Virus record (IMG/VR): IMGVR_UViG_2716884207_000004
Coordinates: 1,808-65,807 of that record
From: a virus
Lineage: Duplodnaviria > Caudoviricetes
DNA length: 64,000 nucleotides
Reading direction: 5' to 3' (one strand)
The translations under genes were made by a program, and so were the position numbers. The notes under the pieces were generated by a model that made no database searches, had not been told where the DNA came from, and saw only the letters and a program-made list of their open reading frames with translations. Positions 28,376 through 64,000 of this stretch are shown here, piece after piece (the first letter of the stretch is position 1; each line of letters begins with the position of its first letter).

Positions 28376-29182
28376 ATGATTAACGAAACACAAAAACTGA
28401 ATAAGGCGATTTTAGAACGAAACGGAGGCGCAGCCCCACCGACCAAAGCAAAGCTGCACCGTCCGAATCGAGCGAAGCACTTCCAGTATATCACAGCGTT
28501 TATTCTATGCGCAATGTTATCCGCATTCACAGCAGTCACCGCAGTCACCGCGCAAGCCACCGATGTTTACCGCAACTTTGCCGAACTCCAAGCAAACGAA
28601 CCCGAGACGAATTACAACATATTCGCGACCGATCACGCCACACCCGTTTTGATACTCGCGCCACACGGCGGCAGTATTGAAGGCGGAACTAGCGAACTTG
28701 CCCGCGAACTCAGCAACGACTATTCAACGTATCTTTTCGAATCGCTTAAGACGCCGAATGGCTTCGACCTCCACATCACGAGCACTCACTTCGACGAACC
28801 GACCGCGCTTGACCTGGTTACGCGCCACCAACGCGTTATATCGCTCCATGGTTATAGCGACAGCGCCGAACACATTATCGTAGGTGGCACCGATCCAATA
28901 CGCGGTCAGGCGTTAGTGGACCGCTTGAATGCTGCCGGCTTTAGCGCCGAACTCGTAGGCGAAGGACATCGATTTGCGGGCGCCAGTGCTGCGAATATAG
29001 CGAATAAGTGCGTAACCGGCGAAAGTCTGCAGCTGGAACTTAGTACCGGTTTGCGGAAAAGCATGTTCGGTACGTTCTCGCTTACTGGACGCGCTGGAAC
29101 CGAAACCGAGACGTTCTATAAATTTACCGGGTTGCTGTCGGCCTTTATTAACGAAAATTATAACGTTGGAGGTAACGAATAA
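28376..29182 (+). CDS. Poly-gamma-glutamate hydrolase (PghP/YoqZ/YmaC family), probably exported
   Basis: APHGGSIEGGTSE, LHITSTHFDEP, SLHGY, QLELS; hydrophobic signal-like segment before the domain. Confidence 0.92.
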   Translation: MINETQKLNKAILERNGGAAPPTKAKLHRPNRAKHFQYITAFILCAMLSAFTAVTAVTAQATDVYRNFAELQANEPETNYNIFATDHATPVLILAPHGGSIEGGTSELARELSNDYSTYLFESLKTPNGFDLHITSTHFDEPTALDLVTRHQRVISLHGYSDSAEHIIVGGTDPIRGQALVDRLNAAGFSAELVGEGHRFAGASAANIANKCVTGESLQLELSTGLRKSMFGTFSLTGRAGTETETFYKFTGLLSAFINENYNVGGNE

Positions 29183-30945
29183 TGATGCGATATACGTTGG
29201 AAGTCGAAAAGTACGGTATTTACTGCGATGGAACTGAGGCGGCCGCAACTACGCAAGGAATCAATCGCGCAATTTTCGAAGCCGCTGAGGCCGGTTATTC
29301 TGAGGTTTATATACCGAAAGGTAAATATCTTATAGACGCAGTAAATCGACTTTCTGTTAAGCCGGAAGAAGGAGCCGGGATACGTGTGCCATCGTGCATA
29401 ACTCTAATATTGCATCCAAAAGCAGAATTCATCGTTGAGTCAAATAGTTCTTACGGTTATTCATGCATCTATATTGGAGAGGTCAAGGATGTAACGATAA
29501 AAGGCGGCAAGATCCGAGGCGAGCGTTATCAGCACGATTTTACCGGTCACGGCGACCTCGAAAAGAGGAAAACGCACGAATGGGGTTACGGCATAAACGT
29601 ACATGGCTCGAAAAACGTCGTAATTGAAGGCGTTGATATTGCGGACTTTACTGGCGACTGTATTATGGTTAACGCGCAAGGAATGCTTAACGTTTCCTGG
29701 ACGACTTACCGCCCCGCTCGCAATATAACGATTAAAAACTGCAAGTTAGACGGAGCACGCCGTAATAACATATCGGTTACAGGCGGCGAGGACGTTAAGA
29801 TTCATGATAACGAAATTACCAACGCGGGCATAAACGATGGCTGTATGCCAATGTTGGGCATTGACATCGAAGGATATGGTGAAGGCGACATTGATTACGA
29901 AGAGCCACGCAACGTCAAAATAACGAATAATACTTTCGTAGGCAACGTGGCACAGTCGGTGTGTAACTTCAGCGGTTATGAGGTCGTTATATCCGAAAAC
30001 CATTCGGACAATACGATCTCTTACGGATATGGAACCGATACAAACATCGAAAATAATATATTTGTTCGTAAGGATAAAAAATACACTGCAATTGCGGGGC
30101 TCGGTGTTTCGGCAGGTTTCATAGGAAATAACGCAACCATTTCCGGTAATACAATAAAAGGCTTCAGCAGTGGTATAGATGTTCGCGGCGGTGACGTTAC
30201 CGTTTCAGACAATACGATTTCAGAATTAAGCGTGGACGGTATTGCCTTAGCCACATTCGAAGCCAAGAACGTTAAATTCTCGGATAATACCGTAAACCAC
30301 TGTCCAGGAAAGCTGTGTTGCGCGCGCAATTCTAGAGATATAACGTTCGAAGGTAACGAATTAAATGACTCGGATATCACCGCGATGGAGATCATCGATT
30401 CTACCAACGTTAAAGCAAAGTCGAATGATATAAAGCGAAGCAAACAAGGCGTCGTAATTACGAGGTCCTCAGCGAAAGTATTCGATAATGACGTCGATCT
30501 TACCGAGTATCCTAACGCTGCGGGATACTCGGTAGCTTTCGATAAAGGCAGTGACGTATTTATTAAAAACACTCACATCCCATCGCCAACAAACATGGCT
30601 ATATACGGAGAAAGCGCTGAAGGTCGAACGGTGCGCATCAAAGACAACGATATAACTGACGCGAAGTGTTTGATACCGATTTACGTTATAGGCGGTAAAA
30701 AACCCGAGATATCAGGAAATGATATAACGTTTAACCGGACGTCTTCCGGTGGTTACGGCATTCAAACGAAGAACACAGACGGCGCGTTAGTAAAGGAAAA
30801 CGTTGTTTATTCCGTTAGTTCTTTCGCGTTGTATAATCCGATAAAGACCTCCGAGTCTATTAATTCGCGAGTTATCGGAAACAAAATATCCGGCAACCTT
30901 TCGCTTAATCAAACGGACATAGAGACGAATAATATTCCAATTTAG
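29182..30945 (+). CDS. Right-handed parallel beta-helix protein (SPbeta YorA-like; possible polysaccharide lyase)
   Basis: Repeated beta-helix rungs; THEWGYGI, RRNNIS, GIDIEG; coupled to pgh as in SPbeta yoqZ-yorA. Confidence 0.8.
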   Translation: MMRYTLEVEKYGIYCDGTEAAATTQGINRAIFEAAEAGYSEVYIPKGKYLIDAVNRLSVKPEEGAGIRVPSCITLILHPKAEFIVESNSSYGYSCIYIGEVKDVTIKGGKIRGERYQHDFTGHGDLEKRKTHEWGYGINVHGSKNVVIEGVDIADFTGDCIMVNAQGMLNVSWTTYRPARNITIKNCKLDGARRNNISVTGGEDVKIHDNEITNAGINDGCMPMLGIDIEGYGEGDIDYEEPRNVKITNNTFVGNVAQSVCNFSGYEVVISENHSDNTISYGYGTDTNIENNIFVRKDKKYTAIAGLGVSAGFIGNNATISGNTIKGFSSGIDVRGGDVTVSDNTISELSVDGIALATFEAKNVKFSDNTVNHCPGKLCCARNSRDITFEGNELNDSDITAMEIIDSTNVKAKSNDIKRSKQGVVITRSSAKVFDNDVDLTEYPNAAGYSVAFDKGSDVFIKNTHIPSPTNMAIYGESAEGRTVRIKDNDITDAKCLIPIYVIGGKKPEISGNDITFNRTSSGGYGIQTKNTDGALVKENVVYSVSSFALYNPIKTSESINSRVIGNKISGNLSLNQTDIETNNIPI

Positions 30946-39600: not shown

Positions 39601-39677
39601 TATAACTGCGAGGTTAGGTATCGGATTGGCACGTTTTCCTCATAAATAGATGCGTATAAAGTTCGGATAACGGACAC
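39601..39677 (-). promoter_or_regulatory. Tandem phage-specific promoter-like motifs (CC-N17-CGCA)
   Basis: GTGTCC-N17-CGCATCTATT and GTGCC-N17-CGCAGTTATA; same pair at 62833-62925. Confidence 0.7.
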
Positions 39678-51838: not shown

Positions 51839-51908
51839 AGTACGTTAGCCTCCGTTTAAATTGAGATTATCGTACTAGGTCGCGAGGGCGTGTTCGCATA
51901 TCGTTCGC

Positions 51909-51937
51909 TTGAATCTGTTGCCAACAGATTGTATTAT
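51909..51937 (+). promoter_or_regulatory. Antisense SigA promoter with palindromic operator inside a long inverted repeat
   Basis: TTGAAT-N17-TATTAT; AATCTGTTG-C-CAACAGATT at 51912-51930. Confidence 0.65.
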
Positions 51938-51980
51938 AGAGGAGTAACGAACGTCCTCGGACCTAGTTACGTATAGCGTG

Positions 51981-52615
51981 TTATACAGCTAGAAAAGCGT
52001 TAAGTTCGCCGTGTTGAGAAGCGTCGTAATTTTTCGCTAAACCTTTGATCACACGTTCTACTTTTTTGTAGTGAACGCCTACCTTACTGCCGATCGAAGC
52101 GTATGTAGGTCGCTCACTCGAAAGATGCTCATTAACGATTGCAGTCGTTATGGCATCGGAATTTACTGTTAGGGCCTTGATAAGTTGCAGCTTATCTTGG
52201 TCCGTTTTTATTTCTCCGTCTAATTGAGAAATCACCTTATCTTCTATATGGATAACAGCGCCAGATTCGAATGTTGCAGCATTCTCTTCTGCGGTTGAAT
52301 CCATTAATTTATGTCGTTTAACATATGTTCCATTCTTCCCGCGAATAATATCTATAGATGATTTCTTTAGTTCGTAGATTATCGCGTTTTCCGCGTTTTT
52401 TATTTTTTTGTATCGACTGATGAAGACCACTTCCAAAGTTTTTCGTGTAAGGCACTAAGTATGTCTTCGCGAATAACTTGTCTAGTTTTAGAAAAATCAG
52501 ATAAAACCTTAGAAATTAAGTCTCTTGATTCTTCAAATAGTAGGTTGAAGTCCTCATCCTGCCTAGTTATTTGATAGGCGTTGATTAGCTGTATTAACTT
52601 TTCGTGTTTCTTCAA
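51981..52615 (-). pseudogene. Sigma-factor-like regulator split into two ORFs at an A7 run (frameshifted or recoded)
   Basis: ORF 52615-52400 ends ACA AAA AAA TAA; -1 frame continues to C-terminal HTH (TYASIGSKVGVHYKKVERVI); fused length ~211 aa. Confidence 0.65.
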
Positions 52616-52783
52616 CTAAAATCCCTCCTCATTTATTGATGCGTATAAACTTTCCTTTTTGGACACCATTTCATAAAAGAAATAATATTTTCTTTCATGT
52701 CCATATATTAGCATGTCTAACATTATAATTATCTAAATAGGAACAATATTTTGATTTAGCAAACTTGTTCAGGTATGTAAACA

Positions 52784-52817
52784 AAATAAAAAGCCCACCT
52801 ACCGTGAGATGGGCTTT
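52784..52817 (-). terminator. Terminator after aimP
   Basis: AAAGCCCATCT-CACGGT-AGGTGGGCTTT then T-rich tail. Confidence 0.8.
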
Positions 52818-52822
52818 AAAAC

Positions 52823-52942
52823 TTATCCTCCGATCGCGTTGATTGCTACTTCTTTACCTGGATCTGATACCTGGTTACTATACAGCAACCCTAGAGTTAA
52901 CACACTCACCAATGTTAAAACAACTAATAAAGTCTTCTTCAA
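52823..52942 (-). CDS. aimP: Arbitrium signalling pre-pro-peptide (predicted mature peptide INAIGG)
   Basis: SD AAGGAG, TTG start; MKKTLLVVLTLVSVLTLGLLYSNQVSDPGKEVA-INAIGG*; overlaps 3' end of aimR. Confidence 0.85.
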   Translation of the reverse strand: MKKTLLVVLTLVSVLTLGLLYSNQVSDPGKEVAINAIGG

Positions 52943-54116
52943 AAACAACATCTCCTTTTTTCGATGAGGTTCCCCTCAAGTTTATTGTCAGGTTTTTGAT
53001 GAAATCAGTACATTCGCCTGCCTCCATCAAATCCCTTACAATTATAGATGCGTAATACAAATTAGAATCGGACACGAAATCACAAAACTTTTTATAAAGG
53101 CTTTTCCGATCTCCTGAAATCGCCTCGAAATATCCGGTAAGGTCAGGGTCGCCTATTTTCCCAACGCAATCTAGTGCATCTTCATAGGAGACTTTTCCTT
53201 TTCTAAACCCCTCAACCTTTTTCAAAACATCAGGTGCGCTTTCTTCAACTTTCTTTGATAAGAGGATTCTAGCAAAGTTATAATTATAAACCGCGTACCC
53301 TTCTAATCGCTCGTCTTTTAATTCTTTAGCTACTTCAACACTGTCTTTTAAGTAGCTCAAACAAATTGATTCATCTGTTTGCAAGTAAGTCATACCAATG
53401 ATGTACAAAGCGTCTGAATTCACTCTCTTGTTAATATTAGCATTGAGGAGAATATTTGAGTAGCGTCTAGCTTCTTCTAAGTTGTTTGAAAAAAGGTGTG
53501 CATATGCTAAAATCTCAGATAGCCTGTACAAATAACACTCCTTTAAAAACAGATGAGATTTATCATTCAATCCATTTATTTGAACTTCGAGTTCTGAAGC
53601 TTTGTTTATTACATATGAGAACTGTCTTTTATGAAGTAAAGTGATACAACCGTAGATGTCTACAAGAATTTTAAGGATTGGGTCGTTGAGGTTTGATAGT
53701 TTGTCTAGTTCTTCGTTCATTGAATCGAACTTAACTTTTCCGTGCATGTACTTACTGATAAAAGAATACACCTTGACGTACTTCTCGATAATATTCCGCT
53801 TTTCGCATTTATAAGTCTCGATATGTTTATCCAGAAGCTCGATATCTCTAGTTATAGCAGCATACTCAAAAGTCTTTCTTATACAATCGGAGCTCTCGGT
53901 TAATTGAGGGCATACGTCTCTCATAAAGGATCTATAATTTTCAGGATCTGCTAATTGCGAAAGGACAAGAAGGCTTCTTAATGTCAGTTTCCGCTTTCCA
54001 GCTCTAAGGTTTCCTACTTGTTTTGTAGACAGTTTTAAATATGACGCGATTAATGAGTCGTTTAAATCATCTCTATCCGAAATACGATCAAATAGAAAGT
54101 TTCTAACTTTGTCCAT
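52878..54116 (-). CDS. aimR: AimR-family peptide receptor (HTH plus TPR)
   Basis: N-terminal HTH, FEYA, FLKECYLYRL, NNLEEARRY, YIIGMTY; followed by small secreted peptide gene and terminator. Confidence 0.85.
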   Translation of the reverse strand: MDKVRNFLFDRISDRDDLNDSLIASYLKLSTKQVGNLRAGKRKLTLRSLLVLSQLADPENYRSFMRDVCPQLTESSDCIRKTFEYAAITRDIELLDKHIETYKCEKRNIIEKYVKVYSFISKYMHGKVKFDSMNEELDKLSNLNDPILKILVDIYGCITLLHKRQFSYVINKASELEVQINGLNDKSHLFLKECYLYRLSEILAYAHLFSNNLEEARRYSNILLNANINKRVNSDALYIIGMTYLQTDESICLSYLKDSVEVAKELKDERLEGYAVYNYNFARILLSKKVEESAPDVLKKVEGFRKGKVSYEDALDCVGKIGDPDLTGYFEAISGDRKSLYKKFCDFVSDSNLYYASIIVRDLMEAGECTDFIKNLTINLRGTSSKKGDVVFEEDFISCFNIGECVNSRVAV

Positions 54117-54186
54117 GTTGTTCACCCCAGTTTTAAGTAAATGAATGACATTTCCACCACGTTTAAGTATAATTGAATTATATCTC

Positions 54187-54210
54187 ATATGTTTATATAC
54201 GTAAACATAT
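54187..54210. promoter_or_regulatory. Operator-like inverted repeat between divergent aimR and HTH genes
   Basis: ATATGTTTA-N6-TAAACATAT. Confidence 0.55.
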
Positions 54211-54230
54211 TATTAGGAGGATTTTTAAAA

Positions 54231-54440
54231 ATGATCGATTTTTCCCCTTTGATGGAGACTTTAAAAGAAAAAGAAATGAATCTGAGTGATTTACGTCAGG
54301 TTATGAGTTCAGCTACTCAAGCTAAAATAAAGAAAAATCATAAAGTGTCTGACTCTAAAATGCGTCTAGGAACTATTGAGAAAATATGTTTATTATTAGA
54401 CGTTCCTGTGGAAAGAGTCATTAGGATTGTCAAGGAATAA
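54231..54440 (+). CDS. Cro/CI-type HTH regulator
   Basis: MIDFSPL..TL...TIEKICLLLDVPVERVI; SD AGGAGG. Confidence 0.8.
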   Translation: MIDFSPLMETLKEKEMNLSDLRQVMSSATQAKIKKNHKVSDSKMRLGTIEKICLLLDVPVERVIRIVKE

Positions 54441-54504
54441 ATATTGGTAAATGTTCTTTCTATAAGTTAAAATGTTACGGACACCTTTACGAATGGAGGT
54501 GTTT

Positions 54505-54738
54505 ATTACGTTTAAGGTCGGCAAATGCCGGATACCCGAATTATGCAAAGATATCGGAATTGAACACGCACAACTCGCAGCCAAGGTCGGACTAGATAAA
54601 TCGCGTATTTCCGATTACGCCAGTCTTCGCAATATACCGAATATCGAGCTCGCCTATAATATCGCTCGTGCACTCGGCTGTAGACTCGAAGACTTATACG
54701 AATGGGTAGAGGTATCCGGCGACGAAACGGAGGGCTAG
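54505..54738 (+). CDS. XRE-family regulator; start uncertain (ATT after GGAGG)
   Basis: HAQLAAKVGLDKSRISDY...IARALGCRLEDLYEW. Confidence 0.8.
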   Translation: MTFKVGKCRIPELCKDIGIEHAQLAAKVGLDKSRISDYASLRNIPNIELAYNIARALGCRLEDLYEWVEVSGDETEG

Positions 54739-55748
54739 AACCTCCGGCCGACCTGAAGTTCGGAAATTCCCGAACCGACACGTAATACTGTTCGTACACC
54801 CTCCGCACGATCATAAACGTTTCTCAACGCCTCTGCACCGCGCTTTACCAATAGTTCATTAGCGTCTTTCACCTCCGTTATATAACCGTGCGCAAGGCGC
54901 ACCTTTCCGTTTAAATAACGCTCAATCGCCGCACGTAATTTATCGCCAGCTTTGTCGTTATCTGTAACTACCGTTAAATATTCGATAGGTGACTGCGTAA
55001 TTATGTCCGCCTTTTTCAAATTAAATGCGCTTCCGCCGGTTCCGATCGCCGGGATACCTACCGAACGCCACGCCATAGCATCGATTTCCGCCTCGCAAAT
55101 GACCGCGCGCCTTATCCGCTGTCCATAAACGAGGTCCATTCCGTAGACTAAATCGCGAATAGGCCAGCCGCCTTTTACGTACCAGAACGCTTTGCCACGC
55201 GTTGAACGATATTTCACGTTAGCGAGGCGCCCGTTCGGAAGCCGCCACGGAATCGCGACCGCATTGCCTACAAGACCCACGCCGGCCTCGCGCTGTACTT
55301 CAGCCGCTATGCCGCGTCCGGTCAGATAATCGTTAGGTCCGGTCTGAACGTCCGCTAAAATAGATTCCGGCAAAGGTTCCGGTTTTGAGACAGCCTTAAG
55401 TTTCGGAAGGCGAAGCGTTAGGCGCCCGTCTTTATCCGTCGGTGCATACGTTTCCAATAAGTACTCAACGGTCTCGTCTTCGGTTTCAGCGCGCAGGAAA
55501 GCGAGCAATTTAACGAACCCACCGCGCGCAAACTCGGCATCATACGCGCCTGAATCTCCCCAATATCCGGCTTTTGCGGACGCTGTGTCTTCAAGATAAA
55601 CGTAGAAGCTCGGCGTTCGATCGTAACGGAACGGACTGGCTGCGAGTAACCGATCTTCCGTCCATGTGGGTCGCGTCCATTCGAATTGTTCGAGTTCGTA
55701 TCGGATATCTACGTCGACGTGACGCCCATTTAGTATTAAAGTCGGCAT
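54735..55748 (-). CDS. DNA primase (TOPRIM)
   Basis: ICEAEIDA, TDNDKAG, KDANE. Confidence 0.9.
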   Translation of the reverse strand: MPTLILNGRHVDVDIRYELEQFEWTRPTWTEDRLLAASPFRYDRTPSFYVYLEDTASAKAGYWGDSGAYDAEFARGGFVKLLAFLRAETEDETVEYLLETYAPTDKDGRLTLRLPKLKAVSKPEPLPESILADVQTGPNDYLTGRGIAAEVQREAGVGLVGNAVAIPWRLPNGRLANVKYRSTRGKAFWYVKGGWPIRDLVYGMDLVYGQRIRRAVICEAEIDAMAWRSVGIPAIGTGGSAFNLKKADIITQSPIEYLTVVTDNDKAGDKLRAAIERYLNGKVRLAHGYITEVKDANELLVKRGAEALRNVYDRAEGVRTVLRVGSGISELQVGRRF

Positions 55749-62832: not shown

Positions 62833-62925
62833 TATAACTGCGAGTTTAACTTCCAGAATGGCACATCTTTTCACCGAAATTTATTCTGTCACTAATAGAT
62901 GCGTAGGCACTTCGAAAAATGGACA
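62833..62925 (-). promoter_or_regulatory. Tandem phage-specific promoter-like motifs (CC-N17-CGCA) heading the replication operon
   Basis: TTGTCC-N17-CGCATCTATT and GTGCC-N17-CGCAGTTATA. Confidence 0.7.
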
Positions 62926-62953: not shown

Positions 62954-64000
62954 TCATCTTCGTTTTATTTTACGCTGCTTATTTAGTTTTCCACGCACCT
63001 TATTTATTGCGGAATATTTTTCGTGTTGGGCCGTAAGTGAACTTCCGGATAGGTGCGTATACCTTTGCACCATCCGTAAATCACTATGCCCCAATAACAT
63101 TTGTAAATGGCGCATATCTCCGCCGCTTTCCAAATACATAGTGGCCGCCGTATGTCGGAATAAATGCGGATGCACCCGCTTCTTTATACCGACCTCTTTC
63201 GCATATTCAACGAGCCGTTTACGGAAATGATCGCGCGTTAAACGTTCACCGTAGTTAGCTAGAAAAATATATTCACTCTCAAAATCCGCACGATTTTCTA
63301 CTATTAATTCGTTTAGCATTTTCGCTGTACCAAACTCGATAGGAACCGTACGAGCTCGTCTGTTTTTCGCAATAGTAGCCGGAATATAAAGAGTACGCGC
63401 TGCAAAGTCGAAGTTTTCCTGCTTAAGTCCGAGCGCTTCCGAAATACGCATCATACCGTCTAATAAAACGTTCATTAAAACGTAGTCCCTAAAATCGGCA
63501 TACTCACGTTGATTTGGCGCAGCAAATAACATCCGAAGCTCGTCCTCGTCTAAGATCACGATTTCCTCTTCGGGCTCTCTGACGTTCTTTATGCCGTGCA
63601 TCGGATTATGTTCGATAAGTCCTTCGTCATAAAGCGTCTTAAAGAAAACGCGTAATGTTTTCAGTCGCGTGTTAATCGTGCCAGGCGCAAGTCCTTTCGT
63701 CATATGCTCGTCCTTCTTAAAGTAATGATCCTCGAATTTAACCCATTCGTCTTGCATATAGACGATATATTTCCGAATCACATCCCGGTTCATTTCGTGA
63801 ATGGATCGCGCGATTCCTTTGCGGTCTAGAAACTCGAGAAAAAAGCCGTAGTTGTCTTCGTATTGGCCGAGGGTAGATTCCGCCCGTCCCTCCGATTTCT
63901 TGATTGCGCGAAACTGGACGAAAAGCACATCGAGATTGCTCGTTGTCTTTCGTAACGTACGTTCCTTTTTAACGCGTTTTCCTGTTCTATTTGCGGACAT
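62954..64000 (-). CDS. Tyrosine integrase
   Basis: GMMRISEAL, HPHLFRHT, LLGHSD, RYTH; N-terminal core-binding domain. Confidence 0.95.
   Translation of the reverse strand: MSANRTGKRVKKERTLRKTTSNLDVLFVQFRAIKKSEGRAESTLGQYEDNYGFFLEFLDRKGIARSIHEMNRDVIRKYIVYMQDEWVKFEDHYFKKDEHMTKGLAPGTINTRLKTLRVFFKTLYDEGLIEHNPMHGIKNVREPEEEIVILDEDELRMLFAAPNQREYADFRDYVLMNVLLDGMMRISEALGLKQENFDFAARTLYIPATIAKNRRARTVPIEFGTAKMLNELIVENRADFESEYIFLANYGERLTRDHFRKRLVEYAKEVGIKKRVHPHLFRHTAATMYLESGGDMRHLQMLLGHSDLRMVQRYTHLSGSSLTAQHEKYSAINKVRGKLNKQRKIKRR

Follow-up and report, generated by a model that had tools for sequence, protein, structure and literature searches.

The stretch of DNA analysed here, called the window below, consists of 64,000 nucleotides (nt) of the IMG/VR virus record IMGVR_UViG_2716884207_000004 (positions 1,808 to 65,807) and is the nearly complete genome of a temperate siphophage of the Bacillus subtilis group. 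It carries an arbitrium locus, in which a short gene encoding a secreted pro-peptide (aimP) lies on the same strand as an AimR-family receptor gene (aimR), at the 3' end of the latter. This locus is probably a working-type arbitrium module that gates the gene of a sigma-like protein located directly behind it. The corresponding features are listed in Table 1. A broader proposal, to which we give even chances, is that an arbitrium branch of B. subtilis-group phages, probably clade 3a, gates a self-amplifying sigma factor and not an AimX mini-protein, with the output of AimP signal coupled to commitment, the whole forming a bistable quorum-peptide switch whose signal, INAIGG, is a shared pherotype.

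An earlier note, made from the sequence alone, had taken a gene encoding a protein with a helix-turn-helix (HTH) and a tetratricopeptide repeat (TPR) region for aimR and had called for profile searches. These bear the assignment out, as the product matches Pfam PF22871 (E 5.2e-25, 88.7 bits for a cut-off of 26.7), NCBIfam NF038310 lysogeny_AimR (191.4 bits for a cut-off of 70) and PHROG 1728 (E 4e-61). Furthermore, when the profile of its family is compared with PDB, the four matches at E <= 1e-3 are all arbitrium receptors (E 4e-12 to 1e-7). By every sequence test run, the product is AimR. An alignment of 18 homologues agrees with a gene start at 54116, a position that lies downstream of a sigma-A-like promoter. 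Outside its own phage type, the closest AimRs of named phages are Wbeta-like ones, with 29-30% identity over 96-98% of the length.

The comparisons that follow were made on 77 related AimR loci, namely the window, eight genomes of the same genus found by a genus search and 68 IMG/VR contigs found by an alignment-based scan of viral contigs; these loci (numbered L) are kin and many are near-identical, so that all counts drawn from them overstate their independence. One of the IMG/VR contigs (L024) has a broken aimR frame that leaves a 206-amino-acid (aa) piece, and its tblastn match extends over 1413 nt, against about 1200 nt usually, which suggests that this aimR has received an insertion or is frameshifted; no open reading frame (ORF) resembling aimP was picked up there.

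The earlier note had also proposed that a 39-codon ORF, missing from the annotation, overlaps the 3' end of aimR and encodes a signal peptide, an acidic linker and, at its C-terminus, the signal INAIGG. This ORF is present. Its TTG start lies 9 nt behind a ribosome-binding site (RBS), AAGGAG, and yields MKKTLLVV..., whereas the alternative ATG abuts the RBS; the 39-codon model is preferred because of this better spacing and of the usual MKK start. The overlap with aimR, in a different frame, is 65 nt from the TTG and 74 nt from the ATG. The product comprises MKK and an 18-residue hydrophobic stretch, which read as a signal peptide, then SNQVSDPGKEVA and INAIGG, with a C-terminus ...KEVAINAIGG; the word acidic overstates the linker, which holds one D, one E and one K. 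The gene is indeed missed by annotation, with no AimP in phi18-2, 268TH002 or, by feature names, 268TH007, and gene callers miss it because of its overlap with the receptor gene. AimP has no match in a collection of 5.8 billion predicted proteins, which merely says that the ORF has not been called as a gene.

An equivalent ORF of 39-60 codons with a signal-peptide-like N-terminus is found at the 3' end of aimR in 75 of the 77 loci, the two others being L024, with its disrupted aimR, and L082, which is located at a contig end. Its overlap with aimR amounts to 47-113 nt in these 75 loci, save in L068 and L081, whose aimR ORF is shortened and ends 53 and 81 nt before it. The predicted C-terminus is GG in 72 loci, GA in two (L008 and L011) and GM in one (L027). 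Six of the 77 loci encode INAIGG, beside AimRs sharing 100, 99, 71, 71, 56 and 56% identity with that of the window; within this subgroup, the pro-region drifts and the last ten residues stay (K/E)EVAINAIGG. At the nucleotide level, the codons of INAIGG are invariant among the window, phi18-2 and 268TH002. Neighbouring groups end in INIIGG (49% AimR identity), INKIGG (50%) or ANQLGG (41-43%), the first two differing from INAIGG at position 3 only. The residue before the last six is Ala in the INAIGG, INIIGG, INKIGG and ANQLGG groups and in several more distant ones, which fits a cleavage to a hexapeptide, though the rule is not general.

This retention of the C-terminus beside diverged receptors gives good support to the proposal that INAIGG, or AINAIGG, is the signal of the phage, and the peptide is predicted from these comparisons to bind AimR and to have a phenotype. 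By itself, AimP would add a pherotype to a known kind of peptide, in a gene that gene callers overlook. INAIGG occurs in no arbitrium paper of the literature searched, which did not cover the tables of Stokar-Avihail 2019 or Supplementary File 1 of Kabel 2025. Nor do the supplements of PMC10075063, PMC12700828 and PMC9232636 contain it; none of four test peptides is present in them and, since even the published EIKPGG is missing, these supplements probably include no peptide lists and are uninformative. The earlier note had not recognised INAIGG as a described signal, and it may be a previously undescribed one. In four other loci (L036, L041, L070 and L075), the mature-peptide unit is duplicated in tandem within the AimP precursor, as in ...AEIKPGGIQYAEIKPGG and ...SDKVGGFILFSDKVGG; two signal molecules could therefore come from a single precursor, and the repeat marks the borders of the unit.

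Behind aimP, the intrinsic terminator that the earlier note had placed there is strong, with a folding energy of -19.5 kcal/mol (z -4.9) that none of 200 shuffled sequences equals. It is followed by the inverted repeat GAACAA-N18-TTGTTC, which was found by eye and then by a DNA pattern search, the automated search for inverted repeats being noisy in AT-rich spacers and missing its 6-bp arms. This pattern has a single match in the 64 kb at no more than one mismatch, for a chance mean of 0.18. Relatives carry an inverted repeat at the same place with arms that depend on the AimR and peptide group: GTGAACAA/TTGTTCAC in the INIIGG group, AAGTACAC/GTGTACTT in the ETRPGG group and AGTAAACAA/TTGTTTACT in the xxKVGG group. 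A receptor operator is expected to keep its location and to have arms that vary from one AimR group to another, and GAACAA-N18-TTGTTC is likely to be the AimR operator, as judged from sequence. In phi3T and SPbeta, the AimR binding site lies a short fixed way behind the terminator and AimR acts as an antiterminator, according to the available part of PMC10769878. The window thus shows, as in arbitrium systems, a terminator and an inverted-repeat site, to which AimR binding is predicted, between aimP and the putative output gene.

After the terminator, the lytic (minus) strand carries successively the inverted repeat, an extended -10-like element TGCTAATAT(ATGGACATG), an A-rich leader and the sigma-like gene. 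The extended -10 element is present in a single copy in the window. Most related loci conserve it at an equal distance, in the form TGNTANNNT, and it is a candidate AimR-dependent promoter of the sigma-like gene. Such a promoter-like element between the site and the output gene is unlike what is known of phi3T, and promoter activation is therefore a live alternative to antitermination. The possibility that the element is a repeated self-activation site was rejected, as it occurs only once in the window. In one study, the contigs of the RNA run X16 stop at 52828 and restart at 52690 and the DNA contigs of two runs continue through this interval, which hints weakly at termination behind aimP and at transcription starting close to the extended -10 element. 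The sequence ATGCTAATATATGG(A/T)CATG(G/A)AAGAAAA, at 52696-52723 in the window and also found in L014, L016, L018, L020 and L026, is kept far better than a -10 box needs. It also reads as a mini-ORF, MLIYGHxRK, which stops after 9-13 codons in some phages. We take it as a promoter with the initial transcribed region; it may also be a leader peptide or an RNA element.

The gap of 200 nt between aimP and the sigma-like gene could also hold the real output of the system in the form of a small ORF or RNA of aimX type, for example a 35-codon ORF (52616-52723), in which case the sigma-like gene would simply be the following gene of the replication region and would not be under AimR control. Such an ORF does exist in the window, its first nine codons recur in distant loci, the sigma-like gene has a promoter-like site of its own, and extended systems usually have a small ORF of 29-80 aa immediately behind aimP according to the available part of Kabel 2025 (bioRxiv 10.1101/2025.11.23.689978). 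However, the position of the recurring codons is that of the conserved extended -10 element, the 35-codon frame is not kept in relatives (it stops after 9-13 codons in L018, L020 and L026), no RBS precedes its ATG, and the X16 RNA contig begins downstream of this ATG. Furthermore, behind aimP there is no convergent HTH gene of aimC type, and the sigma-like gene keeps its place across groups sharing less than 35% AimR identity. Globally, an output of this kind appears very improbable.

The next conserved gene after aimP is not a small aimX-type gene but a 211-aa sigma-like ORF. In the window, this gene is split by an A7 run (52403-52409) that is 1 nt shorter than the A8 found in three GenBank phages, in the IMG/VR locus L015 and in all four public sequencing runs examined; the runs share about 0.73 of the sampled words, so that none is the window's strain. 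The gene is intact, with 211 codons for amino acids, in phi18-2, 268TH002 and L015. The frameshift may mean that the switch is inactive in this prophage, or it may come from a misassembly of the homopolymer.

Annotations of the 211-aa gene in relatives read "RNA polymerase sigma factor" or hypothetical. A profile of the family (18 members) has the ECF (extracytoplasmic function) sigma factor SigE as its best PDB match (E 7.7e-4), another sigma factor being matched at E 0.0038. The AlphaFold model reaches a mean predicted local distance difference test score (pLDDT) of 70.4, with its middle 40 residues disordered, and the titles of all 50 among the Foldseek matches listed are those of sigma factors or of initiation complexes of RNA polymerase. 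PF04542 (region 2) is recorded in 11 of 23 homologues sharing 45-99% identity and reaches 26.0 bits (cut-off 24) in the 56%-identical protein of L007 and L028, and several sources name homologues sigma factors. The 211-aa protein is considered, with moderate confidence, to be sigma-70/ECF-like.

A sigma-like ORF is found within 800 nt of aimP in 46 of the 77 loci. In 45 of these 46, including groups sharing less than 35% AimR identity, it lies 170-290 nt after aimP, and in the last one (L033) 743 nt after it. It is displaced by 2.5 kb in one locus, and two loci offer too little DNA. Nineteen loci, including L077, have no such gene, the 18 others being mostly from the cereus group with xxKPGG or xxRPGG peptides. 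A second family occupies the same position in seven loci, to which L077, where the ORF starts earlier, can be added. Its members (L010, L012, L013, L014, L072-L074 and L077) have 209-213 aa and a C-terminus ...HRKFIRRFRLHCQRELTA, lie directly after aimP, adjoin AimRs with ELRPGG or xIKVGG peptides and match no family model. Homology with the sigma-like family was rejected (hhalign probability 2%) and the two are treated as separate families; an initial hidden Markov model that mixed both is no evidence of homology.

Comparison of the leaders of related sigma genes brought out a bipartite motif, TGTCC-N15-TACGCATC. The window contains four exact copies, all on the lytic strand, and none was obtained in 100 shuffles. 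In the whole 4.07-Mb genome that contains the window, five copies were found, of which four are in the prophage, and the reversed control has none; the copy outside the prophage (G000 contig 8, 724282-724309, locus L083) is probably due to chance. Two further sites with two mismatches (2083 and 51627) were dropped, as chance gives 1.16. The copy preceding the sigma-like gene suggests autoregulation and the one inside aimR is a candidate sigma-dependent promoter of aimP. These two copies co-vary in both halves across seven phage types (the window, L016, L018, L020, L026, L007 and L029), with halves such as TGTCC/TACGCATC, TGTCC/T(A/G)CGCAAC, TGCC/TTCGCAGT and TGGCC/TACGCAAC. In G049, whose AimR is 71% identical, a third copy of its own variant lies directly after the integrase gene, at the same place as in the window. 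A putative regulon extending beyond aimP and the sigma-like gene is found in two of the four phages tested. The sigma-like gene is accompanied by putative cognate bipartite promoter-like sites, including one directly before it, which the sigma-like protein itself would read.

The bases that follow the aimR-internal copy (53030-53047, TATAATTGTAAGGGATTTGATGG) resemble those after the copy that precedes the sigma-like gene (52615-52638, AATAAATGAGGAGGGATTTTAGTTG), including the RBS of the latter. The ATG behind the internal copy is an in-frame Met of AimR, and a short C-terminal AimR fragment could therefore in principle be made from that transcript.

The nature of the 211-aa protein can be questioned on the same data. 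It could be a different type of DNA-binding regulator with two domains, for instance an activator or an antirepressor, with the motif corresponding to its operators or to sites of a host ECF sigma factor; the protein of this phage has no direct family match, its structural matches are weak, the middle third of its model is disordered, and a different, unrelated-looking family of 209-213 aa takes the same place in eight loci. This is quite unlikely, as every informative sequence or fold match of the 211-aa family is to sigma factors. ECF promoters are bipartite, with a fixed gap and a CG-containing downstream half, and the motif, with its fixed 15-nt gap and a CG in its downstream half, has the same build. 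Moreover, its co-variation follows the phage and not the host, and it is nearly absent from the host chromosome, with one copy outside the prophage.

The mechanism that we propose, with a sigma-like protein as output, would run as follows. aimR would be transcribed from a sigma-A-type promoter, and AimP would be exported by the Sec pathway, cut outside the cell to INAIGG (possibly AINAIGG) and re-imported to bind the TPR body of AimR. Free of peptide, AimR would bind GAACAA-N18-TTGTTC and allow RNA polymerase to reach the sigma-like gene, either by antitermination as in phi3T and SPbeta, or by activation of the extended -10 promoter, devoid of a -35 box, about 45 nt downstream of the repeat. 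The sigma factor would then recognise TGTCC-N15-TACGCATC, boosting its own synthesis and that of aimP, the replication operon and the nucleotide-metabolism operon, and its activity would lead to lytic commitment. At high INAIGG concentration, AimR would release its site, no sigma factor would be made and the phage would lysogenise.

AimR, or read-through from its promoter, might instead control the genes located on the other side of aimR; the sigma-like protein would in that case be an early activator with a constitutive wiring of its own. Two small XRE-type HTH genes, annotated in relatives and conserved beside aimR in the loci of the genus, are candidate repressor and Cro-like genes of the switch. 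Their promoter and the promoter of aimR (PaimR) are divergent and overlap back to back within 54145..54205. Over the -35 box of PaimR, in the 114 nt that separate aimR from the divergent HTH gene, there is a perfect 9-bp inverted repeat, ATATGTTTA-N6-TAAACATAT (54187-54210), whose arms are kept in phi18-2 with a changed spacer; one of the XRE-type proteins may have it as its operator. HTH genes flank aimR in most genus loci, and the available part of Kabel 2025 describes small HTH repressors as the target in most arbitrium systems. Against such a wiring, the sole copy of the repeat that depends on the AimR group is the one downstream of aimP, none being present between aimR and the HTH genes, and the HTH genes, located upstream of aimR and mutually co-directional, are arranged unlike aimC and aimL. 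Nor do their products show a significant likeness to the Wbeta-type aimC product, one aligning with it weakly (E 0.004 over 55 residues) and the other not at all. This alternative is unlikely.

Several points, besides the kinship of the loci compared, weigh against a sigma-gating arbitrium module as set out above. The sigma-like gene is broken in this very window, and AimR is tied to it by two things only, gene order and the repeat. The phage's own sigma-like protein, taken from an intact copy (L001), has no Pfam or NCBIfam match; TIGR02937 spans both sigma regions in the homologues from L007 and L009 with scores (33.1 and 38.1 bits) below its cut-off of 42.9; a third of the structural model has a pLDDT under 50; and the Foldseek matches are weak, with a best E-value of 2.2e-3 and template modelling (TM) scores of 0.26-0.39. 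Concerning the motif, a k-mer screen of intergenic regions did not recover it unaided, and the distant ETRPGG and xxKVGG groups are devoid of the aimR-internal copy. This copy falls within the coding sequence of a conserved AimR segment, DFVxxSNLxxAxIIVRD, and coding constraint therefore accounts for part of its conservation, though not for its tracking of the non-coding copy. In G050 and G051, only the two local copies are seen, even when one mismatch is allowed, and the conserved core of the putative regulon would therefore be aimP and the sigma-like gene. On the peptide side, other groups have S, Q, Y, M, F, E, V, L or G immediately ahead of the hexapeptide, the length of the mature peptide (hexa- or heptapeptide) is proposed by analogy with EIKPGG of Wbeta, and the literature search found no experiment on this peptide or receptor.

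The known arbitrium systems share part of this organisation. In Wbeta-type systems of B. cereus-group phages, aimP overlaps the 3' end of aimR as in the window, and AimP ends in EIKPGG or TIKPGG, with the same GG end but a Pro at position 4 where INAIGG has an Ile. EIKPGG is active as a hexapeptide (Stokar-Avihail 2019 as cited in the available parts of PMC8878798 and PMC11945551), and the hexapeptide proposed here is modelled on that signal. The Wbeta-type layout consists of a small ORF, a convergent HTH gene and a Cro-like gene and adjoins a recombinase gene, whereas the window has a sigma-like gene and no convergent HTH gene.

SPbeta and phi3T have the same order as the window, that is, receptor, peptide, terminator, inverted-repeat site and output gene (available part of PMC10769878), and the same peptide logic and receptor family. 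However, their receptors are distant from that of the window (profile E 4e-12 to 1e-7), their peptides end in GA and not in GG, and their output is the 51-aa AimX acting on MazEF, against a 211-aa sigma-like protein here. Moreover, for phi3T, the available part of the same paper reports that no promoter was found between the site and the output gene, where the window has a promoter-like element. With a peptide ending in IGG and a 64-kb siphophage genome unlike SPbeta, the window does not resemble the SPbeta-like clade 2, sro genes not having been searched by name.

In the extended arbitrium systems of Kabel 2025, as in the window, the core belongs to a wider module for the lysis-lysogeny decision and has small HTH genes in its vicinity, and the available part of that survey places replication genes under the switch. 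These systems have an HTH gene in the opposite direction after aimP and aimX, followed by a divergent Cro-like gene. In the window, all ORFs of at least 120 aa after aimP run in the direction of aimR, no convergent HTH ORF is seen among them and the HTH genes lie upstream of aimR. According to the available part of the survey, the aimX-aimC-aimL layout accounts for about 75% of arbitrium systems and that of SPbeta for about 4%, and one subtilis-dominated clade is, by the survey's own account, outside both schemes. The layout of the window fits this unexplained remainder and its AimR is expected to belong to clade 3a.

Bacillus phage sigma factors (SPO1 gp28 and gp33/34; SP10 Orf199-200) redirect the host RNA polymerase to phage-specific promoters, and ECF sigma factors typically read a promoter before their own gene. 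These sigma factors act in lytic cascades or in envelope-stress circuits held by anti-sigma factors, whereas the gene of the window lies behind a peptide-quorum receptor in a temperate phage, with no anti-sigma gene evident. The literature search found no paper describing a wiring from arbitrium to a sigma factor; the word sigma is absent from the available text of Kabel 2025 and from a 2026 review, and the sigma factors mentioned in PMC8270828 are those of the host or of SP10.

The known outputs of arbitrium are AimX acting on MazEF in SPbeta-like systems and an AimX antirepressor acting on AimC in extended ones. If true, a sigma output would be a third and simpler route, with a readable regulon and a built-in positive feedback. 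The sigma-like wiring with co-varying promoters is a variation on a known system, apparently unpublished, and suggests that aimR, aimP and the sigma-like gene form an undescribed route from the signal to the lysis-lysogeny decision. It is testable in B. subtilis with the isolated phages 268TH002, 268TH007 and phi18-2 and a synthetic peptide. Furthermore, the recurrence of INAIGG beside diverged receptors bears on phage cross-talk: if a signal is truly shared by receptors only 56% identical, unrelated-looking phages would listen to one another.

Table 1. Features of the arbitrium locus and related sites (window positions)
Feature	Position	Strand	Remarks
aimR, arbitrium peptide receptor	52878..54116	-	412 aa; N-terminal HTH and TPR-like body
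aimP, unannotated pre-pro-peptide	52823..52951	-	42 codons from ATG 52951; 39 from TTG 52942
aimP RBS AAGGAG	52952-52957	-	from sequence
Codons of predicted mature signal INAIGG	52826..52843	-	preceding Ala codon would give AINAIGG
Intrinsic terminator	52790..52817	-	directly after aimP; 11-bp stem and T run
Inverted repeat GAACAA-N18-TTGTTC, candidate AimR operator	52741..52770		about 20 nt after terminator
Extended -10-like element TGCTAATAT(ATGGACATG)	52696..52713 (TGCTAATAT 52705-52713)	-	no -35 match
Motif copy 1, before sigma-like gene	52638..52665	-	ends 22 nt before start codon
Putative divergent sigma-70/ECF-like gene, aimX position	51981..52615	-	split here: 52400-52615 (71 aa) and 51981-52436 (151 aa)
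Motif copy 2, inside 3' part of aimR	53047..53074	-	about 100 nt before aimP
Motif copy 3, between integrase gene and first replication-operon gene	62898..62925	-
Motif copy 4, directly after ribonucleotide reductase small-subunit gene, before dUTPase and thymidylate synthase genes	39649..39676	-	PHROG functions
PaimR, sigma-A-like, TTTACG-17-TATAAT	54205-54177	-	consensus scan
HTH-gene promoter, sigma-A-like, ATGACA-17-TATAAT	54145-54173	+	consensus scan
Two small XRE-type HTH genes	54231-54440, 54493-54738	+	Pfam HTH_26, HTH_3
Tyrosine integrase gene	62954..64000		PHROG

PHROG scans of 50 ORFs assign to the window an endolysin, tail, head and terminase proteins, ribonucleotide reductase, DNA polymerase, helicase, primase and a tyrosine integrase, nearly all the genes being on the minus strand. 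The window is part of contig 12 of the 4.07-Mb genome, which means that the phage is a prophage here, and its AimR is the sole AimR of this genome. A close-relative search of genome contigs with this single AimR gave no relative, and 89 pattern matches, all unconfirmed. Positions 51900-54800 are 98.6-98.9% identical to the B. subtilis phages 268TH002, 268TH007 and phi18-2. The temperate character of the phage is indicated by its integrase and by the description of its relatives, 268TH002 and 268TH007 being called temperate in their genome announcement, which does not mention arbitrium (PMC9476937).

The earlier note had located the arbitrium locus inside the replication region, far from the integrase, which is borne out by PHROG: the module lies between primase and DNA-polymerase genes, about 9 kb from the integrase gene and with replication genes between them. 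A low-GC island (about 52000-54500, 30-40% G+C for flanks of about 50%) spans the aimR-aimP-sigma cassette and the first HTH gene, which suggests that the regulatory module is transferred between phages as one unit. Elsewhere in the window, a plus-strand block (28376-30945), opposite to almost all phage genes, carries a poly-gamma-glutamate hydrolase-like gene and a tail-spike-like gene and is of an accessory type common among B. subtilis phages.

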